Source of the DNA: a virus
Reading direction: 5' to 3' (one strand)
Virus record (IMG/VR): IMGVR_UViG_3300010373_000039
Span: 1-64,000 of that record
Length of the DNA: 64,000 nt
Shown here: positions 9,344 through 27,074 of the stretch, piece after piece
How positions within the stretch are numbered: position 1 is the first letter of the stretch
Layout of the letters: each line of letters begins with the position of its first letter
Notes under the pieces: generated by a model
Databases searched by the model: none
The model's input: only the letters and a program-made list of their open reading frames with translations
Told to the model about the DNA's origin: nothing
Translations under genes and position numbers: made by a program

Positions 9344-9377
9344 TACGTTGCCTATCCCCTTAAAATTCGTGTACCAT
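9344..9377 (+). promoter_or_regulatory. TACGTTG-class promoter (terminase operon)
   Basis: TACG-TTGCCT, 18-nt spacer, TACCAT; intergenic. Confidence 0.65.
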
Positions 9378-18802: not shown

Positions 18803-19606
18803 ATGAAGTTCAATATCAGTGCCGATGAGTACGCCGCGCTTCCCGATGCCCTCAAGTCGGCATACAAGCCGCAGGGCGATGGGTATCAACTGCAGGTAGA
18901 GGGGTTGGACACCGACCCCAAGAAGGTCAAGGAATTCCGCGACAACAATTTGAAGTTGGAGCGGGAGAAGCGGGAATTGGCCGCGCAAATGGAAAAGTAC
19001 AAAGGGATTGACCCCGAGGAATACGCCCGGCTGCAGGAGGCGGCGAACAAACTTCGCGAATTAGAGGAGAAAAACCAAATCTCCGCCGGCAACCTCGAGG
19101 AGGTCGTGGCCAAGCGCACCGAAACGATGCGCCAGGATTACGATAAGCGGTTGGACGCCACCAAGAAATTGTTGGACGCAACCACCGCCGAGCGTGACCG
19201 TTACAAATCCGGTTTCCACAACCAAAAAATGGACGCACACCTGCGATCCGCGCTCAACAAGGCCGGCAACCTCAAGAACGGTGCCGATAACCTTCTGATC
19301 CGCGAGGCGCGGGAATTGTTCACGTTGGACGAGGAGAACGATACCATCGCGTCCAAGGACCTGTACAATGACAAGGGCGAGCCCATGACCGCCGAGGAAT
19401 GGGGTAAGCGCATGGTCATTGAACGCCCCTATTTGTTCGAGCCGGCCCAGGGTTCGGGCGCATCGGGCGGAAGCAAGGGCAATGGCGGGGCCAATCGCGG
19501 CCAATCGAAAATCAAGGTGTTGTCCAATCCCTCGCCGGTGGACTTCGGCAAAAGCTTGGAAGGCATCGCATCCGGCGAGGTTGAGGTACAAACGGCCGAC
19601 GAATAG
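18803..19606 (+). CDS. capsid scaffolding protein
   Basis: Y..L.VEG..KVKEFRDNN, long coiled coil, PYLFEP..GSGA.GG; AGGAG RBS. Confidence 0.85.
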   Translation: MKFNISADEYAALPDALKSAYKPQGDGYQLQVEGLDTDPKKVKEFRDNNLKLEREKRELAAQMEKYKGIDPEEYARLQEAANKLRELEEKNQISAGNLEEVVAKRTETMRQDYDKRLDATKKLLDATTAERDRYKSGFHNQKMDAHLRSALNKAGNLKNGADNLLIREARELFTLDEENDTIASKDLYNDKGEPMTAEEWGKRMVIERPYLFEPAQGSGASGGSKGNGGANRGQSKIKVLSNPSPVDFGKSLEGIASGEVEVQTADE

Positions 19607-19625
19607 GCAGAGGATTCATCGGTCG

Positions 19626-19668
19626 CCGGTGGGGGCGGTTCGGGTTGAATATCCGGCCGCCCCACCGG
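19626..19668 (+). terminator. long GC-rich hairpin after scaffold gene (terminator or processing stem)
   Basis: CCGGTGGGGGCGG...CCGCCCCACCGG inverted repeat; no clean U-tract. Confidence 0.45.
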
Positions 19669-19677
19669 ATATAAATT

Positions 19678-19771
19678 GGGGTGGTGTCCGGGTGCATGGT
19701 GTACAGGGAGAGCCTGTTTCCGGGTCGATGCCATAGGATGGCCCTCATGAAACACACCCGGACATCATTTT
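19678..19771 (+). ncRNA. putative structured small RNA (~90 nt), family unknown
   Basis: Terminal stem GGTGGTGTCCGGGTG/CACCCGGACATCATT enclosing two hairpins; TATAAAT just upstream, TTTT at the 3' end. Confidence 0.5.
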
Positions 19772-19782
19772 AAGGATTTTGG

Positions 19783-20115
19783 ATGACCCCAACCGATCAC
19801 ATTTGCCTGGATGCCACGATCCTTGGTGGAAACCAAAAAACCGAGGTACAAATCTTTGATCGTGGGGAAAAACGATGGTTTCGGGCCATGATTTGGCGTA
19901 ATGGCCGCAAGTGTCGCCCGGCCGAATTCCGCGTGGATGCCACGTTGACCATCGAGGAATTATTAGTTGCGGCGTTGTTGGAAATCCAACCCAACACCAA
20001 CGAACCACAAAAACCAGGTTTCACCACCGGATGGGGATTATTTTGTTTAGGCATCGCTACCGGTAGTGTCCTTTCATCCTTTGTTATTTGGTTGCTTTGG
20101 TTACTTCACAATTGA
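19783..20115 (+). CDS. hypothetical protein with C-terminal TM helix
   Basis: AAGGA RBS; hydrophobic C-terminus. Confidence 0.65.
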   Translation: MTPTDHICLDATILGGNQKTEVQIFDRGEKRWFRAMIWRNGRKCRPAEFRVDATLTIEELLVAALLEIQPNTNEPQKPGFTTGWGLFCLGIATGSVLSSFVIWLLWLLHN

Positions 20116-20146
20116 CGGTCTAACCAAGGGGTATAAATGGGGTTGG

Positions 20147-21073
20147 ATGATCGAAACCAAATGCACATGTCTGGTCGATGGTAACTTCATTTTTTGGCGG
20201 GCGTACCACACGCCGGGAATGAACCTTTCTCATCGGTGCGATCGTTGCCGGGTTGCCGGCGCAAACGATCCCAAATGCCCGGTATGTGCCGGAACCGGAC
20301 GCGAACCCACCAAGGCAACCTATGGGTTTATCCGTGAAATTCTTTCAATATTAAAGGAATCGCGGCCGCGACAATTGGCGGTGGTGTTTGACGGTCCCCG
20401 TGGGGAATTGCGCCGGCGCGCCATTTGGCCGGGATACAAGGCCAACCGCGATGATAACGACGATCCGGGGGTGACGTGGCAAATGATCCGTATCAAGGAA
20501 ATCCTCCGGACGATGGGGGTTTGTGTGGTGGAGTGTCGGGGACACGAGGCCGATGATGCGCTGGCGACGTTGGCCGTCCGGTGCGCAACCCAAAACCGGA
20601 CGGTGACGATTATCACCCGCGATAAGGATATACGGCAATTGTGTTCGGACCGTCGTATCAAATGCTTCGATCCGGTTTCCAAAACCACCTACGATTGGAT
20701 CACCGCCGGCAAGAAATGGGGCATTCGCACCCGGCAAATTTTCGATATGCTGGTTTTATCCGGGGATGGCACCGATGGGATTCCCGGAATCATGGGGATT
20801 GGCGAGAAAACCGCCGCCAAACTTCTTCAATTGTATCGGAATGTGGACGGGGTGATTGCGGCGGCGAATGGTGGGTTATTGACGCCCAAAACCGCCGAAT
20901 CGATCAAAAACGCGGTGGCACGGGGGTACATTGACCGCAACAAAACCCTTGTCCAATTGGATCGTAACATTTCATTCCAACCCGGTACGTTGGTGATGCG
21001 GACGAAACGTATTAACTTAAGTGCATCGGTCCCGTTGTTCAAAGCACTCGGGTTCCGGAGTTTGTTGGGCTAG
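20147..21073 (+). CDS. 5'-3' exonuclease/flap endonuclease (PolI N-terminal type) with Zn-finger insertion
   Basis: LVDGN, VVFD, YKANR, EADD, DKDI.QL, GDGTDGIPGI.GIGEKTA; TATAAAT 8 nt before the ATG. Confidence 0.92.
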   Translation: MIETKCTCLVDGNFIFWRAYHTPGMNLSHRCDRCRVAGANDPKCPVCAGTGREPTKATYGFIREILSILKESRPRQLAVVFDGPRGELRRRAIWPGYKANRDDNDDPGVTWQMIRIKEILRTMGVCVVECRGHEADDALATLAVRCATQNRTVTIITRDKDIRQLCSDRRIKCFDPVSKTTYDWITAGKKWGIRTRQIFDMLVLSGDGTDGIPGIMGIGEKTAAKLLQLYRNVDGVIAAANGGLLTPKTAESIKNAVARGYIDRNKTLVQLDRNISFQPGTLVMRTKRINLSASVPLFKALGFRSLLG

Positions 21074-21076
21074 AGA

Positions 21077-21514
21077 ATGGCAAATAAAAATCAAAAATGT
21101 GAAACGGTGGCGCACGCGGTGAATCGATTGTACGCAACGTGCGAATTTCTTGCATCTCAAGGTTTCGTGTTGACCGGCGCGATGTTTGTTGTGAAACCCA
21201 AAGGGGATTTCAAGCAAAACGCGGTCAAACATGTTACCGACGACGGGCGTGTGGGTACGGTGCGGATCATGCCGCCGGATGGAATGAAACCCCCGGCCGA
21301 GGGAAATGGCGGTCCATTGACCCCATTAAAGGCGGCGGTGGTGGTCACCGCCAGCGCAATCGCATCCGGTGCCGTGACGGCGGCGGTCCATGCCCATGGC
21401 GGCGGTAAACCGGTAATGGGCGAGATTTGCAAGAATTGTGGTGGTGCGAACCTTCAACGAATGGGTACGTGTTTGTATTGTCAGGATTGCGGGGAGTCGA
21501 ACGGGTGCAGTTAA
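21077..21514 (+). CDS. protein ending in a class II RNR (NrdJ)-like C-terminal Zn ribbon
   Basis: GEICKNCGG..LQRMGTCLYCQDCGESNGCS terminus; no RNR catalytic domain. Confidence 0.65.
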   Translation: MANKNQKCETVAHAVNRLYATCEFLASQGFVLTGAMFVVKPKGDFKQNAVKHVTDDGRVGTVRIMPPDGMKPPAEGNGGPLTPLKAAVVVTASAIASGAVTAAVHAHGGGKPVMGEICKNCGGANLQRMGTCLYCQDCGESNGCS

Positions 21515-21524
21515 TGGAGTAGCG

Positions 21525-22154
21525 ATGACGACCCTTAACGACATGGCGAACGGACGGCCGTTGTGTGATCCTTTGATTGTCTATCTGATAGGTCCATCGT
21601 GCGCCGGCAAGGGAACGTTTATCGCATCCGAACGCAACCGTGAAAACGTGGCGTTTGTCGAGGTGGGTCGGGAATTCCGCAAACGCTATCCCCCCGAGCA
21701 TTTCCGTGGGTGCGGGTCGCCGGACCATTTGGAGGCCGAGGCACTTCAAATCTTCCAAGAACAATTCACGGCCGCGTTGACCGATTGTCCCGACATCATT
21801 TACGTGGACGGTCAACCCCGCCGAACATCCCAGGTTATTCCCACCGCACCGCCCCAATTCAATCGCCGGATGTATTTGATTATCAGCGCCGCGGACACGG
21901 TTTTGGCCGCACGCGCTTTGCAACGATTCGGCGGTGAGAATAATGAGGGTTATGCCATTTGCCGTAAACGTGCGGTCAACGATCGGGTCGATTTATTCGA
22001 TGTGCTTCACGCACTGATTTTGAAGGGCGAACGGGTTTTCGCTATTGACGGCAGCAAATCTCCGGACGATGTAGCCGAAGATATTCGCGCCACGATCTAC
22101 AATCACGTAATGAAGGATCACCTTTATTGTCGCGCGGATGGGCATCCGCGATAA
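21525..22154 (+). CDS. adenylate kinase-like nucleoside monophosphate kinase
   Basis: P-loop GPSCAGKGT and DGQPR (DGFPR in adenylate kinases); GGAG RBS. Confidence 0.8.
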   Translation: MTTLNDMANGRPLCDPLIVYLIGPSCAGKGTFIASERNRENVAFVEVGREFRKRYPPEHFRGCGSPDHLEAEALQIFQEQFTAALTDCPDIIYVDGQPRRTSQVIPTAPPQFNRRMYLIISAADTVLAARALQRFGGENNEGYAICRKRAVNDRVDLFDVLHALILKGERVFAIDGSKSPDDVAEDIRATIYNHVMKDHLYCRADGHPR

Positions 22155-22635
22155 CGATTGGGACCGCCGGTTTGGGCAAAACCACCGGTGGGTGTTTGCG
22201 GGTTGTGGGTTGGCAACCGGTCGTCCCGGATCGTATGGGACGACCGCCCAATCCTTCGTTGGGAGGTTATTTGTGTTCTTCAGTGCAGCGCAGATTCGCG
22301 AGCGCTCTCGCGAAAATCGGAGGAATTTGGTTCGGTTGGATGAAGCCTTGACGGCATCGCGGGAATCGGAGTTGGCCAAAAGGGCATCCGAAACCGTCGT
22401 GTCCGTGGGACGTGCCCGCGTGGAGTTGGGTTGGTTGGCACGGAACAACCCGGTGGAATTGGAACATTTGATGGATTCGTGCCCGCCCGACCACAAGGAT
22501 TTTTGGGCAATTACCCTGGTGTACGAACGCTATGAAAAGCGCATCCGAAATTCGGTCAGTAAGCACCGGAGCGATCGACGCCGCGACACCCTCGCCGGCC
22601 TCGCCGCCGTTGGACGCGCCGCGGCGGTTTGCTGA
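22138..22635 (+). CDS. hypothetical protein
   Basis: Overlapping in-operon ORF. Confidence 0.55.
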   Translation: MGIRDNDWDRRFGQNHRWVFAGCGLATGRPGSYGTTAQSFVGRLFVFFSAAQIRERSRENRRNLVRLDEALTASRESELAKRASETVVSVGRARVELGWLARNNPVELEHLMDSCPPDHKDFWAITLVYERYEKRIRNSVSKHRSDRRRDTLAGLAAVGRAAAVC

Positions 22636-22846
22636 TGCAATCGCCACGTGGATTCGGGCCGAATGGTATTTCCGCGCCGGTCCCCGTGCGTTCCAAACGC
22701 CGGAGGACACGTGGTTGTTGAACGCCGAGGACAATCTTCGACAGGTGTTGACCGGGTGTCGTGGGTTGCAGGAGGCGTTCGAGACGGTTTGCGATCACGA
22801 GGAAATGTCGTTGTTGTACTATTTGGAATTAGGAGGAAAACCGTGA
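22532..22846 (+). CDS. hypothetical protein
   Basis: ORF overlapping the previous one; GTGA-coupled to the next. Confidence 0.5.
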   Translation: MKSASEIRSVSTGAIDAATPSPASPPLDAPRRFADAIATWIRAEWYFRAGPRAFQTPEDTWLLNAEDNLRQVLTGCRGLQEAFETVCDHEEMSLLYYLELGGKP

Positions 22847-23001
22847 AACGCGGCAACCACCCGTTCGGGTTCGGGGATTTGTTGTTCATGTCCGGATTGG
22901 CGGCATTGGTTGGCGCGTTCGTTTTTCTTAGGTTTCACAATAATCGGGAACCATCATCGGACCGTTGGCAATCCTTCGTACACCTTCTTTCAAATAACTG
23001 A
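22843..23001 (+). CDS. small membrane protein
   Basis: AGGAGG RBS, GTG start, one TM helix. Confidence 0.6.
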   Translation: MKRGNHPFGFGDLLFMSGLAALVGAFVFLRFHNNREPSSDRWQSFVHLLSNN

Positions 23002-23003
23002 TC

Positions 23004-23741
23004 ATGAGCACAAAGTTTGCCCATAGCGGGGATTTGGGAGATATTATCTACGCAATGCCCGCGATCCGGGCATCGGGTGGCGGTTCCCTTCAATTGTGGA
23101 ATAACCAGGGTGTCACCACCCATGCCATGACCCCCCAACGGGTGTCAATCATCTACGATTTTTTGATTTCCCAGGACTACATCACGGCGGTTGAATTCGG
23201 CCCCCGGGCCAACCATCCCCTCAACAATTTCCGTGCGTTCAACAACGGTCGTCGCAATTTGGTGGACATGCATTTGGCCGCAATGGGGTTGCCGGTGGCC
23301 GAGCGGCGTTTCCCGTGGATTAAGATCGACGAGCCCCGTCGCGTGGCCGAGGTCATCATCTGGCGAACCCCACGATGGCACAGTTTTGAATTCCCGTGGG
23401 ATCATATTTGGGAACGGTTCGGCAAATTGTCGATTGGTTTCATTGGCTATCCCGACGAACACAAAGAATTTGTCCGGAGAACCGGACACAGGGTCGATCA
23501 CATCCCAACGGCTAATTTGTACGAGGCGGCGAGGGTCATTGCCGGCAGTACCGTTTGTGTTGGCAATCAAACATGTCTTGCCGCAATCGCCCACGGTTTG
23601 CGACACCCCATGATTTTGGAGATTTGTGGTCACGAACCCGTGGCCGTTTTTCAGTACGATGGTTTGTTCAATGCATATGATGCCGACTTTACACTTCCAA
23701 CCTTAACCAAGGAAAAACATGCGCGCGTTTCTAGTGTATGA
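23004..23741 (+). CDS. GT9/heptosyltransferase-like glycosyltransferase (GT-B)
   Basis: GDLGDII.AMPAIR N-terminus; NLYEAARVIAGS..CVGNQT...AIAHGL. Confidence 0.75.
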   Translation: MSTKFAHSGDLGDIIYAMPAIRASGGGSLQLWNNQGVTTHAMTPQRVSIIYDFLISQDYITAVEFGPRANHPLNNFRAFNNGRRNLVDMHLAAMGLPVAERRFPWIKIDEPRRVAEVIIWRTPRWHSFEFPWDHIWERFGKLSIGFIGYPDEHKEFVRRTGHRVDHIPTANLYEAARVIAGSTVCVGNQTCLAAIAHGLRHPMILEICGHEPVAVFQYDGLFNAYDADFTLPTLTKEKHARVSSV

Positions 23742-24789
23742 TGGTGGCGATTCGGTCTACGTTCCGCCGACGATGGGAACCCCCCGTGCCGATCAAATGC
23801 ACGGAACGCCGGGCGAGCAATTGGTCGAAATCTCCGGGCGCGTGTGCTATGACTCGCTGGGCACCGGCCGCAACACCCCCGAGTACCATAAACACCTTTT
23901 AGGTGTTAAACACTATTCGGTGCATGAGCACGTACATTTCACGGTCGAGGTCCAAGATTGGATGGACCCAACCCCGTGGATTGGTATTCCGGATGTGGTG
24001 TTCCGACCCATGCGTTCCGTCGCCCGTAACCGATTTACCTTCAATCTTCGTCACGCTTTGGAGTGGCCTACCCAACTTCCGCCGAATCTTTACAACGAAC
24101 GTGTTATCAAGGATTGGGGGCGCATTCTACAATGGGCGGCGCATGGGGTGGTGCCCAATTTGGTTCCCACGCCGGAAACGCGAATGCCACCGTCGTTGGA
24201 AATGCGTTTGGTGCGGCCCGAAACCGACCGGGAATGCTTCGTGTCACTGTTCCTTGAGGATTCGTTGGTGTGGTCGCACGAGCAGGTACGACACCGTTTC
24301 AACATGTCCCAACGATCCGGACGGTTCTGCGATCAAACCGACCGCGAATACGCCATACATCCCTTGTTGAAAAAATACCTCAACGAGGCCGGGTACATGG
24401 CATTGAACCCGGAGGACGGCGAGCAATTGTTCATGCAACCGACCGTCAACGATGCCGCCATACACGCCCGGACCCGGTTGGGCAATGACATCGGGTCGTT
24501 AATAACCCAAACCAAAATGGTCTACGAGGCCACGGTGGACGCGCTGCAAAAATACATCGGCGAAACCATGTCGGTGGATGCGACCACGGCCCGCAAACAG
24601 GCACGATCGGCCGGACGCTATTACCTTGGCCAGGGACTTTCCACCGAAATGATTTTCACGGCATCGGTCGCGTCGTGGCGGGGCATCTTTGAAAAACGGG
24701 TCAATCCGGCCGCCGACGCCGCGATTCACGAATTGATGTCGCAGGCTAAGGATTGTGTGTTAAAATCCCGTTACGGCCAATTGTTCTAA
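23719..24789 (+). CDS. thyX: flavin-dependent thymidylate synthase
   Basis: GRVCYDS, HYSVHEH, EQVRHR...SQRSGRF, ARKQAR..GRY.L, R...AAD.AI. Confidence 0.88.
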   Translation: MRAFLVYDGGDSVYVPPTMGTPRADQMHGTPGEQLVEISGRVCYDSLGTGRNTPEYHKHLLGVKHYSVHEHVHFTVEVQDWMDPTPWIGIPDVVFRPMRSVARNRFTFNLRHALEWPTQLPPNLYNERVIKDWGRILQWAAHGVVPNLVPTPETRMPPSLEMRLVRPETDRECFVSLFLEDSLVWSHEQVRHRFNMSQRSGRFCDQTDREYAIHPLLKKYLNEAGYMALNPEDGEQLFMQPTVNDAAIHARTRLGNDIGSLITQTKMVYEATVDALQKYIGETMSVDATTARKQARSAGRYYLGQGLSTEMIFTASVASWRGIFEKRVNPAADAAIHELMSQAKDCVLKSRYGQLF

Positions 24790-24799
24790 GCGAGGGAAC

Positions 24800-25123
24800 G
24801 TGCATTTCAATCAAGCCATGGACGCGGTTGTGGACGAATACACGTCGGACGCCGATTTGGATCGGCTATGGGTATTCTTGGGTTCGTACAAATTGGCGAT
24901 GCGCAAACTGTACTACGAACAACGACCCAAAATGAAATGGCGACCGCTGGTCCCCATCTTTCGCAAGGTGAACAAGAAAATCGATTTGATTTGGGACGAG
25001 ATGCTTAAACGGCAATTTTGCCCGTCCTACTACCGTTACCGTTATCGCGAAGGTTTACAACGTCCGGAGTGGATTCCGGAACGAAACTTCCTTCGCCACG
25101 AGATCCCCTCGGCGTTCGATTAA
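24800..25123 (+). CDS. hypothetical protein
   Basis: GAGGG RBS, GTG start. Confidence 0.6.
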   Translation: MHFNQAMDAVVDEYTSDADLDRLWVFLGSYKLAMRKLYYEQRPKMKWRPLVPIFRKVNKKIDLIWDEMLKRQFCPSYYRYRYREGLQRPEWIPERNFLRHEIPSAFD

Positions 25124-25136
25124 AAATTTCATTTCC

Positions 25137-25169
25137 TACGTTGCACGTATATTTTCTTGTGGTATATAT
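25137..25169 (+). promoter_or_regulatory. TACGTTG-class promoter (capsid operon)
   Basis: TACG-TTGCAC, 16 nt, TATATAT; intergenic. Confidence 0.65.
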
Positions 25170-25181
25170 CCCATCTCGTGA

Positions 25182-25364
25182 AGATGATTTCGGTGGCTAT
25201 GCCGATCATCTAACCACCAGAAACTGAGTCCCGACAGAATCCGTGGGCGGCGCTCATGGATTGCCTATAGACGGCGTTTGTAGGCAGCTCTCCGGCGGAG
25301 GGCCAAGAGGATCACTGGTTGCACCAGCGTTTCATTTGGTCCCTTTCCGAAATGGAGATCTGTC
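25182..25364 (+). ncRNA. structured 5' leader with tandem C-GGC-G triloop hairpins
   Basis: Hairpins 25238-25262, 25263-25285 and 25287-25303 all have GGC loops closed by C-G; GACAGA 25233-25238 can pair with TCTGTC 25359-25364. Confidence 0.65.
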
Positions 25365-25883
25365 ATGGCTGCGGCCAAGTGCTACCTCGAACGAAGGCAA
25401 AAAGGCTGCTTGCCCATCCTTTGCGGTGGTGGCAGGCACTTTTTGATGCCTTTGGGTCGCGGGCACTTTGCCAAGGTTGATGTCGCCGATTTCAAAATCG
25501 TGCGGTACATGCCCTGGCGTTCATCCCCCCAAACCAACGGCGTTTATGTTTTCGGACAAAACGCGCCGCTTCACCGGTTTTTGATGAATCCGGGCAAAGA
25601 TTTTGAGGTGGACCATAAAAACGGCGACCCGCTTGACAACCGCCGTTCAAATCTTCGAGTAGTTTCCCACGCGGTCAATCAGCAGAATCAACGTGTACGT
25701 CGGAATAGCAAAACCGGCGTCCGAGGCGTTTCGTTTGAACGCCAAACGAATAAGTACAAAGCCTCCTTCAAAGTTGGGAATCGTGTAGTCACATTAGGTC
25801 GGTTCGTCAATTTGGCGGATGCCGCCGAGGCCCGTCGCGAAGCCGAGCTAAAGTTTTGGAACAGGACATATGCGGTTCGCTAG
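25365..25883 (+). CDS. HNH homing endonuclease with AP2 DNA-binding domain
   Basis: LHRFLM, VDHKNGDPLDNRRSNLR, SKTGVRGV, LGRF...AAEARREAE. Confidence 0.9.
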   Translation: MAAAKCYLERRQKGCLPILCGGGRHFLMPLGRGHFAKVDVADFKIVRYMPWRSSPQTNGVYVFGQNAPLHRFLMNPGKDFEVDHKNGDPLDNRRSNLRVVSHAVNQQNQRVRRNSKTGVRGVSFERQTNKYKASFKVGNRVVTLGRFVNLADAAEARREAELKFWNRTYAVR

Positions 25884-25925
25884 GTAAAACTGGCTGGACC
25901 GGTTTTGAAAGGTAAGGGTATCTAT

Positions 25926-27074
25926 ATCGCTAACATTTTAACCGCCGTTACCCCCAAACTGCTCGCCCAGGGCCTTCTAGCGCTTCGCCAGGTTGCGATC
26001 ATGCCGCAATTGGTGAACCAGGGCTATTCCCAGCTTGCCGGCGAACGCGGATCGTCGATTGACGTTCCGATTCCCTCCGCAATCACGGCGCAGGCCGTGG
26101 CCCCCGGCAATACGCCGCCCTCGACCGCCGATGTGCAGCCCACGTCGGTGAGTATCGCGCTCAACAACTGGTACGAAGCCCCGTTCTATTTGACCGATCA
26201 GGACATGATGACCGCCATGGAGGGAACCATCCCCATGCAGGCATCGGAAGCGATCAAATCGCTGGCCGTCCAGGTCAACAGCGACATTTTCTCGCTATAC
26301 AAGAACATCTATGGTTTTTCGGGCACCCCCGGCACTACGCCGTTCGCGTCCAACACCACGGATGTCACCACGACCCGTAAGATTTTGAACACCCAGCTCG
26401 CGCCGATTTCCGACCGCCGGTTTATGCTGGACCCCAGCGCTGAGGCCAACGCGCTGTCGCTCGCCGCGTTCCAGGCCTATCTTAACACCGACGACACCGG
26501 TGTTATCAAGGACGGTAACCTGGGCCGCAAACTGGGATTTGATTTCTACATGTCCCAGCTCGTTCCGACCCACACGGCCGGCTCGATCACCACGGGACTG
26601 ACCGCCAAGGCATCGACGGTCCAGGCGGTGGGCACCACGGCTATCGTTTGCACGACCGCCGCCTCTACCGGCGCCTGTGCGCTGGTTATCGGCGACATCA
26701 TCACGTTCGCCGGCGATACCCAAACCTACGTCGTGACGGCGGCGGCAACGCAGGCATCGGCCGCAACCGATGTGACGGTGAACATCTCCCCGGGTAAGAA
26801 GGTTGCCCTGGCCGGTGGTGAGGCCGTTACGCTCAAGGCATCGCACACCGTCAACCTCGCGTTCCATCGTGACGCGTTCGCATTTGCGACCCGTCCGCTG
26901 ACACAGGCGGCTGAGGGATTGGGCAACATCATTCAGAGCGCCGTGGACCCGGTTTCGGGCCTTAGCCTCCGGTTGGAAATCAGCCGCGAACACAAGCGGA
27001 CCCGATTCAGCTACGATATCCTTTACGGTATGCAATGCATCCGTAAGGAATTGGCGGCGCGATTGGCCGGATAA
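25926..27074 (+). CDS. major capsid protein (P22 coat-like); probable ATC start
   Basis: (M)ANILT..LLAQGL.ALR, NLAFHRDAFAFATRPL, DILYG; AAGGG RBS 7 nt before ATC; strong terminator after it. Confidence 0.9.
   Translation: MANILTAVTPKLLAQGLLALRQVAIMPQLVNQGYSQLAGERGSSIDVPIPSAITAQAVAPGNTPPSTADVQPTSVSIALNNWYEAPFYLTDQDMMTAMEGTIPMQASEAIKSLAVQVNSDIFSLYKNIYGFSGTPGTTPFASNTTDVTTTRKILNTQLAPISDRRFMLDPSAEANALSLAAFQAYLNTDDTGVIKDGNLGRKLGFDFYMSQLVPTHTAGSITTGLTAKASTVQAVGTTAIVCTTAASTGACALVIGDIITFAGDTQTYVVTAAATQASAATDVTVNISPGKKVALAGGEAVTLKASHTVNLAFHRDAFAFATRPLTQAAEGLGNIIQSAVDPVSGLSLRLEISREHKRTRFSYDILYGMQCIRKELAARLAG

Follow-up and report, generated by a model that had tools for sequence, protein, structure and literature searches.

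Genes and promoter-like motif around the leader

The window analysed here, 64,000 nucleotides long, belongs to a 97,455-bp IMG/VR phage contig with a GC content of 54%. Within it, the leader lies in a 241-nt gap (25124-25364) between an orphan ORF of 107 aa (24800-25123), for which no relatives were found in IMG/VR or in a set of 5.8 billion proteins, and the ATG at 25365. Among public sequencing runs, matches were listed for four DNA runs, all from soil metagenomes and one of them probably the source, and for no RNA run. Leader fragments of 177-233 nt were present in the three other DNA runs and all of them were identical, so these public matches contain no leader variants.

The initial annotation had spoken of a capsid-operon leader; the ATG at 25365 was found to open a free-standing HNH endonuclease gene, with the capsid gene coming second. 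The first cistron (25365-25883, + strand) encodes 172 aa and matches Pfam HNH_3 (2e-09) and PHROG 99 (7.8e-35); its homologues carry AP2 and HNH_3 domains, and the one close relative found (P0003), sharing 72% identity, lies on a contig of 1,521 bp. After 21 nt there follows the ORF of the P22-coat-like major capsid protein (25905-27074, + strand; Pfam P22_CoatProtein, 4.5e-24; PHROG 283, 2e-79). This ORF contains neither an ATG nor a GTG start. Its opening codon, TTG 25905, falls within a hairpin of 9 bp (25885-25907) and lacks a clear ribosome-binding site. At 25926, 7 nt past an AAGGG, ATC GCT AAC stands where the family's usual N-terminus, (M)AN.LT (M-A-N-x-L-T), would be encoded, and the HNH gene itself begins with ATG GCT.

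In relatives a scaffold-like gene lies directly 5' of the capsid gene, unlike in this phage, where the scaffold homologue (18803-19606) is followed by ~6.3 kb of other genes (19607-25883) before the capsid gene is reached. Among these are a 5'-3' exonuclease (20066-21073), ThyX (23719-24789), the orphan 107-aa ORF and the HNH gene. Immediately 3' of the stop codon of the scaffold homologue there is a long GC-rich hairpin (19626-19673; CCGGTGGGGGCGG ... CCGCCCCACCGG), which may be a terminator that lacks a U tract.

A group I intron with an HNH ORF was considered and rejected. Rfam gave no group I match and no catalytic core was found; exon continuity is lacking, in that the preceding ORF of 107 aa terminates at a stop codon of its own and the match to the capsid profile begins at position 2; only the said 21 nt separate the HNH stop from the capsid ORF; and the ATG GCT ... 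ATC GCT repeat does not comply with the U/G splice-site rule. Most likely, the HNH gene was inserted between an ancestral leader and the capsid gene, and it now uses the buried ribosome-binding site of that leader.

Within the gap we identified a promoter-like element on the + strand (25137-25169), composed of TACGTTG (with TTGCAC as the -35 box), 16 nt and an extended -10 box, TGgTATATAT, from which transcription is predicted to start near 25175-25177. The same arrangement, TACGTTG followed after 19 or 20 nt by a TATAAT-like box, was found in five gaps before morphogenesis genes (at 9344, 12692, 18713, 25137 and 35206), and the intragenic TACGTTG copies mostly come without a clear TATAAT-like box. 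TACGTTG by itself occurs 15 times versus 7.7 expected, a count that 5 of 100 shuffles also reached and hence not a significant excess. The five sites are candidates for a set of late promoters, and we infer that the leader is transcribed from the promoter-like motif upstream of it.

Hairpin array and predicted fold of the full leader

The initial annotation had described three back-to-back hairpins with unrelated stems and a common C-GGC-G loop, and all three were located on the + strand as described. H1 (25238-25262) is formed by AATCCGTGGGC-GGC-GCTCATGGATT and comprises 11 bp including two G.U pairs; H2 (25263-25285, extendable to 25261-25287) is formed by GCCTATAGAC-GGC-GTTTGTAGGC and comprises 10-12 bp including two to three G.U pairs; and H3 (25287-25303) is formed by GCTCTCC-GGC-GGAGGGC, with 7 bp including one G.U pair. 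Each carries a C-GGC-G triloop, such that the tips are identical on mutually unrelated stems, and the array as a whole sits 62-127 nt 5' of the ATG at 25365. No other C-GGC-G hairpins with stems of at least 7 bp exist on the + strand of the window (shuffled sequence contained 1.5 hairpins with stems of at least 6 bp, counting both strands together), and across the whole 97,455-bp genome H1-H3 are the sole intergenic C-GGY-G hairpins on either strand. A second copy of the array before a tail gene was not found in this genome. Beyond the window, at 88182-88221 of the genome, a near-perfect stem of 18 bp capped by a CGGC loop ranks as the genome's longest perfect hairpin.

When folded with RNAfold, the + strand leader RNA reached -97.2 kcal/mol (z -4.16), and none of 200 shuffles did as well, while the - strand gave a weaker signal (z -2.30). 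On the opposite strand the five G.U pairs of H1-H3 turn into A.C mismatches, and the difference between the two strands bears out the earlier suggestion that the G-U pairs favour an RNA structure on the + strand.

H1 and H2 were predicted to be almost fully formed in the context of the full leader, with pair probabilities of 0.99-1.0 and 0.98-1.0, respectively (folded alone, they reached -13.7 and -11.2 kcal/mol). The pair probability of H3 was ~0.96 in an RNA ending at 25310 and dropped to 0.00 in the full leader, where forcing it costs +6.5 kcal/mol; according to the folding model, H3 is an alternative or co-transcriptional fold. The predicted equilibrium fold contains H1 and H2 and lacks H3.

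A 5'-proximal stem-loop, H0 (25178-25217, + strand; -14.1 kcal/mol alone), appeared in both the minimum-energy and the centroid structure of RNAfold, and its inner part is the 25182-25211 hairpin that had been noted on one side of the array; were transcription to start near 25176, the transcript would begin with H0 as its terminal stem-loop, and the array would lie in a genuine 5' leader. The hairpin noted on the other side, CTGGT-TGC-ACCAG (25315-25327), is part of the minimum-energy structure as well and forms the tip of a long arm (25289-25358, + strand) in which 25289-25307 pairs with 25335-25358. This 5-bp hairpin is a weak terminator-like site within shuffle expectation, and a U run is missing after each of H1-H3, which led us to reject intrinsic termination. 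Also found in the minimum-energy structure was the proposed pairing of GACAGA (25233-25238, + strand), the 5' strand of a helix that we term P1, with TCTGTC at 25359-25364.

The predicted outcome of this fold is a buried ribosome-binding site. The long arm uses up both arms of H3, and in it the anti-Shine-Dalgarno CUCC (25290-25293) is predicted to pair with the Shine-Dalgarno GGAG (25354-25357, + strand; unpaired probability 0.00), while the spacer UCUGUC (25359-25364, + strand; unpaired probability ~0 at 25360-25364 and 0.00 at 25360-25363) makes up the 3' strand of P1. P1 would close the whole array into a compact junction, leaving a single base between its end and the start codon. With H3 forced, the ribosome-binding site was predicted to remain mostly paired, through a short stretch nearby. 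Several homing-endonuclease genes have an occluded start region, for example I-TevI and mobE of T-even phages, and the predicted pairing of both Shine-Dalgarno and spacer would make this a leader of that occluding kind.

Leader hairpins before the capsid genes of relatives

Capsid homologues with 35-62% identity were obtained from IMG/VR and JGI metagenomes. Neither nhmmer nor blastn detected a sequence-level homologue of the leader in the capsid-upstream regions of these relatives, and the likeness to them is at the level of the motif only. We compiled 39 non-redundant loci and counted C-GGY-G hairpins with stems of at least 5 bp. The 200 nt before the capsid start contained 26 such hairpins in the sense orientation (7.8 kb in total) and none in the antisense orientation (7.8 kb), as compared to 21 in the remaining 211 kb of the same strand. 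This amounts to a ~33-fold enrichment before the capsid start (binomial p 1e-25), and C-GGY-G was likewise overrepresented among triloop hairpins (odds ratio 16.7, p 9e-17). At least one C-GGY-G hairpin was present upstream of the capsid gene in 18 of the 39 loci, over a GC range of 0.37-0.70; in about half of the relatives the motif was absent or other loops were found.

GGU was the most frequent loop in the relatives (22), followed by GGC (4), GGA (3) and GGG (3), and some relatives repeat a different loop altogether (GUU three times, CGA twice, GGA twice). Hairpins of the same locus tended to share their loop, with 12 same-loop pairs versus 6.3 expected (permutation, p 0.012) and, when the GGU class was excluded, 5 versus 0.65 expected (p 0.0006). 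The matching is not strict, as GGC and GGU, or AGY and GGY, occur together in several relatives, and tandem duplication could contribute to it. In a second clade, two double compensatory changes preserve the pairing of the hairpin closest to the start codon, the loop of which is GGU, CGU or GUU. Most stems in the relatives are perfect Watson-Crick palindromes, and the asymmetry between G.U and A.C pairs is weak there (10 versus 3, p 0.09).

A lack of loop conservation at homologous loci had been named in the initial annotation among the outcomes that would refute its reading; the loop was retained, as C-GGN-G on varying stems before capsid genes. The leader of this phage belongs to the class defined by at least one, and usually two or more, sense-strand C-GGN-G triloop hairpins in the ~200 nt before the start region of a P22-type capsid gene, and differs from the rest of it in that the HNH gene lies between array and capsid gene. 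Both within the window and between phages, the stems vary with pairing kept and the loop stays constant.

The ribosome-binding site was also considered in the relatives. In 15 of 22 loci, its predicted partner coincides at least in part with a hairpin, and a ranked complementarity test between it and the last hairpin was positive in 6 of 27 loci (p 0.047). This p value being marginal, a general switch between last hairpin and ribosome-binding site was dropped as a mechanism and kept as a local feature; in the present leader, moreover, the site stays paired when H3 is forced.

Several relatives carry related hairpins elsewhere or with other loops. In L012 (1365-1392), two identical tandem GTCCC-GGT-GGGAC hairpins are positioned 5' of the scaffold-like gene and not of the capsid gene. 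A further C-GGT-G hairpin occurs ~0.9-1.1 kb 3' of the capsid gene in L003 (3208-3224), L004 (5205-5221) and L007 (6296-6312), where the stems CAGTGGC/GCCGCTG, CGGTGGC/GCCACTG and TAGCGGC/GCCGTTA, respectively, differ from one another in both arms and largely retain pairing. Before the capsid gene of L016 (752-784) there are two hairpins with a GGGAU loop, GCGC-GGGAU-GCGC and GCTC-GGGAU-GAGC, which resemble GGA sites of the CsrA/RsmE type.

Cultured representatives of the class are found in Vibrio phages of the Mardecavirus group. In Vibrio phage SSP002, whose capsid protein is 52% identical, the scaffold stop is followed by a canonical terminator, a TTGACG-N17-TATAAT promoter, two C-GGG-G hairpins, an open A-rich spacer, a ribosome-binding site for which no occlusion is predicted, and the capsid gene. 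The two leader hairpins are the sole intergenic C-GGN-G hairpins in the first 40 kb of this genome, which comprise all structural genes. Promoter and both hairpins are retained in five Mardecavirus phages, with one compensatory stem change (G-C to A-U) in hairpin 1. The SSP002 leader (L076:2458-2496) also contains a possible upstream ORF of 12 codons, which begins right after the second C-GGG-G hairpin and stops 4 nt before the capsid ATG.

Interpretation of the array

As to the suggestion that the array is an undescribed ncRNA motif, no Rfam match and no published description were found. A search of the 64-kb window with the Rfam 15 covariance models yielded no match at the gathering score, the permissive threshold applied to 24700-26000 gave two noise matches (E above 9), and 20 related loci yielded no match either; ARAGORN reported no tRNA or tmRNA, and full-text literature searches retrieved no description of such a leader motif. 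As for RNA-binding proteins, a search of the phage genome detected no CsrA (PF02599), cold-shock (CSD) or S1 domain; the Com domain gave no match there, but its model was also silent in control genomes and is hence uninformative.

Several known systems resemble the array in part. In the lambdoid N-boxB (nut) system, as possibly here, a phage protein reads the loop and not the stem of a short hairpin, each phage has a loop sequence suited to its own protein, and the hairpin sits in a leader just downstream of a promoter. BoxB, however, is a single GNRA-like pentaloop hairpin next to boxA that serves antitermination from early promoters, whereas here one to four C-G-closed triloops stand in tandem before one late gene; a lambda-type nut site (5-bp stem, GNRA-like pentaloop) was rejected given the 3-nt GGC loops and the stems of 7-12 bp. 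The coat-replicase operator of MS2/Qbeta, the T4 gene 32 leader and P22 scaffold autoregulation likewise involve structured RNA near the start of a highly expressed gene, with free protein tuning synthesis in the known systems, and the context here is that of P22-type head genes; unlike the array, each of those autogenous operators consists of one site, which extends into the start region. To our knowledge, the RNA target of the P22 scaffold control is undefined, and this control concerns gene 8 and not the coat gene. The multi-hairpin operators and sponge RNAs of CsrA/RsmE share with the array tandem unrelated stems bearing the same G-rich loop, one of their sites can involve the ribosome-binding site, and a few relatives do carry GGA loops. 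CsrA, however, needs GGA in a larger loop, while the loops are GGC here and mostly GGU in relatives; with PF02599 also absent from the phage genome, a CsrA/RsmE operator was rejected. A Chi-like reading of CCGGTGG was dropped too, in view of the variable loops, the palindromic flanks and the different hosts.

The best explanation is that the array represents the local copy of a conserved sense-strand 5' leader of the major-capsid transcription unit, found in a clade of tailed phages with a P22-type coat. Such a leader would carry one to four short hairpins with free stems and with tips constrained to a C-G-closed GGN triloop, with GGC as the loop in this phage, GGU in most relatives and GGG in the Vibrio Mardecavirus phages. 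We estimate a probability of about 0.5 that a candidate trans factor which reads the loop docks at these tips, a reading that fits best with the conservation of the tips but not of the stems, the tandem arrangement, the single site in each genome and the partial loop matching within phages. The putative factor, either phage-encoded (possibly a head protein) or from the host, would read the loop and thereby set the translation or the survival of the capsid mRNA; we infer its binding, as well as the direction of any regulation. As regards the multivalent protein-binding leader originally proposed, its placement at the RNA level and on the + strand was upheld and a multivalent, loop-specific site fits best; the accompanying idea of feedback by scaffold or capsid protein as the ligand is a guess.

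In a more specific form, which we consider somewhat less likely than not, the array may be the operator of a putative loop-reading regulator that sets capsid output across a broad clade of P22-coat-type tailed phages, perhaps free coat or scaffold protein, with the loop triplet (GGU, GGC and GGG, or GUU and CGA in outliers) co-evolving with this regulator. A more remote variant is suggested by analogy: the GGU loop of RNase P RNA pairs with the N73-C74-C75 end of tRNA, and the GGN loops might pair with such tRNA ends. With the scaffold and capsid genes separated in this phage, the array remained on the capsid side, behind a promoter-like motif of its own, and this makes it less likely that the hairpins serve the 3' end of the scaffold mRNA.

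Rather unlikely, in our assessment, though the main competitor, is an mRNA element that works independently of any factor, by protecting the message from RNase or Rho or by insulating the ribosome-binding site, with the tip kept as a compact, favourable triloop. Such an element would suit hairpins that precede, untranslated, the phage gene with the highest expression, the position of H0 at the predicted 5' end, the lack of any RNA-binding protein found in the phage, and the order in SSP002, where an open A-rich spacer comes after the hairpins and the ribosome-binding site is predicted to be accessible. Stability alone, however, leaves it unexplained why the same 5-nt tip sits on unrelated stems, GGN triloops receiving no special bonus in the nearest-neighbour model used, and why the tips of other phages differ from these and yet match internally (GUU three times, CGA twice, GGA twice); nor does it account for the absence of such hairpins from all remaining intergenic stretches of this genome and of the first 40 kb of SSP002. 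We deem it improbable that the structure belongs to a mobile HNH cassette, in which an occluding leader holds a toxic nuclease low and is unrelated to the capsid gene. The HNH start codon follows immediately on the leader, and the ribosome-binding site and spacer of this gene are predicted to be fully paired, yet like arrays precede the capsid genes of relatives that have no HNH gene there. The cassette and the capsid leader are compatible, in that the nuclease may exploit a pre-existing occluding leader.

That the palindromes act as DNA, whether as protein sites, as cruciforms or as recombination hot spots at the scaffold-capsid junction, appears very improbable. This junction is a site of insertions in the present phage, and the mostly perfect palindromic stems of the relatives hold no strand information; the palindrome centres, by contrast, are strictly oriented (26 CGGYG versus 0 antisense in the upstream windows), the three stems of this phage need five G.U pairs, the stems have no common sequence for a DNA-binding protein to read, and stems of 5-7 bp are too short for extrusion. 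Hardly any weight is left for a chance cluster of hairpins or for ordinary transcription terminators. The CTGGT-TGC-ACCAG hairpin, behind which a T-rich run lies, was flagged as terminator-like, but H1-H3 lack a U tract, the separate canonical terminator of SSP002 lies 5' of the promoter, and the clustering, the loop identity and the enrichment across phages go far beyond shuffles; as far as sequence statistics allow, this explanation was refuted.

Returning to the conserved capsid leader, a free-standing HNH homing-endonuclease gene would have landed between this leader and the capsid gene and come to use the ribosome-binding site of the leader, which the closed junction (P1 together with the CUCC/GGAG pairing) would bury. 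If so, translation of the HNH gene, and perhaps that of the capsid gene as well, should be low unless the fold is opened or remodelled. The burial of the ribosome-binding site of a free-standing or intron-borne endonuclease gene in a hairpin, which limits translation, is shared with I-TevI and mobE, but the hairpin there belongs to the endonuclease gene alone, and a late promoter located within the hairpin allows it to be bypassed, whereas here the occluding leader appears to be an older capsid leader taken over by the HNH gene.

No protein is required in larger amounts by a tailed phage than its major capsid protein, and little is known about the post-transcriptional control of this protein. 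The probable takeover of the capsid translation start region by an HNH gene raises the question of how the capsid protein is still efficiently translated. For annotation, the leader motif is useful as a mark of the capsid transcription unit, with one site per genome. A leader motif spread across soil, water and marine Vibrio phages would constitute a new and experimentally reachable control point of virion production and, if a loop-reading operator is truly at work, it could be dissected in the cultured Mardecavirus phages of Vibrio.
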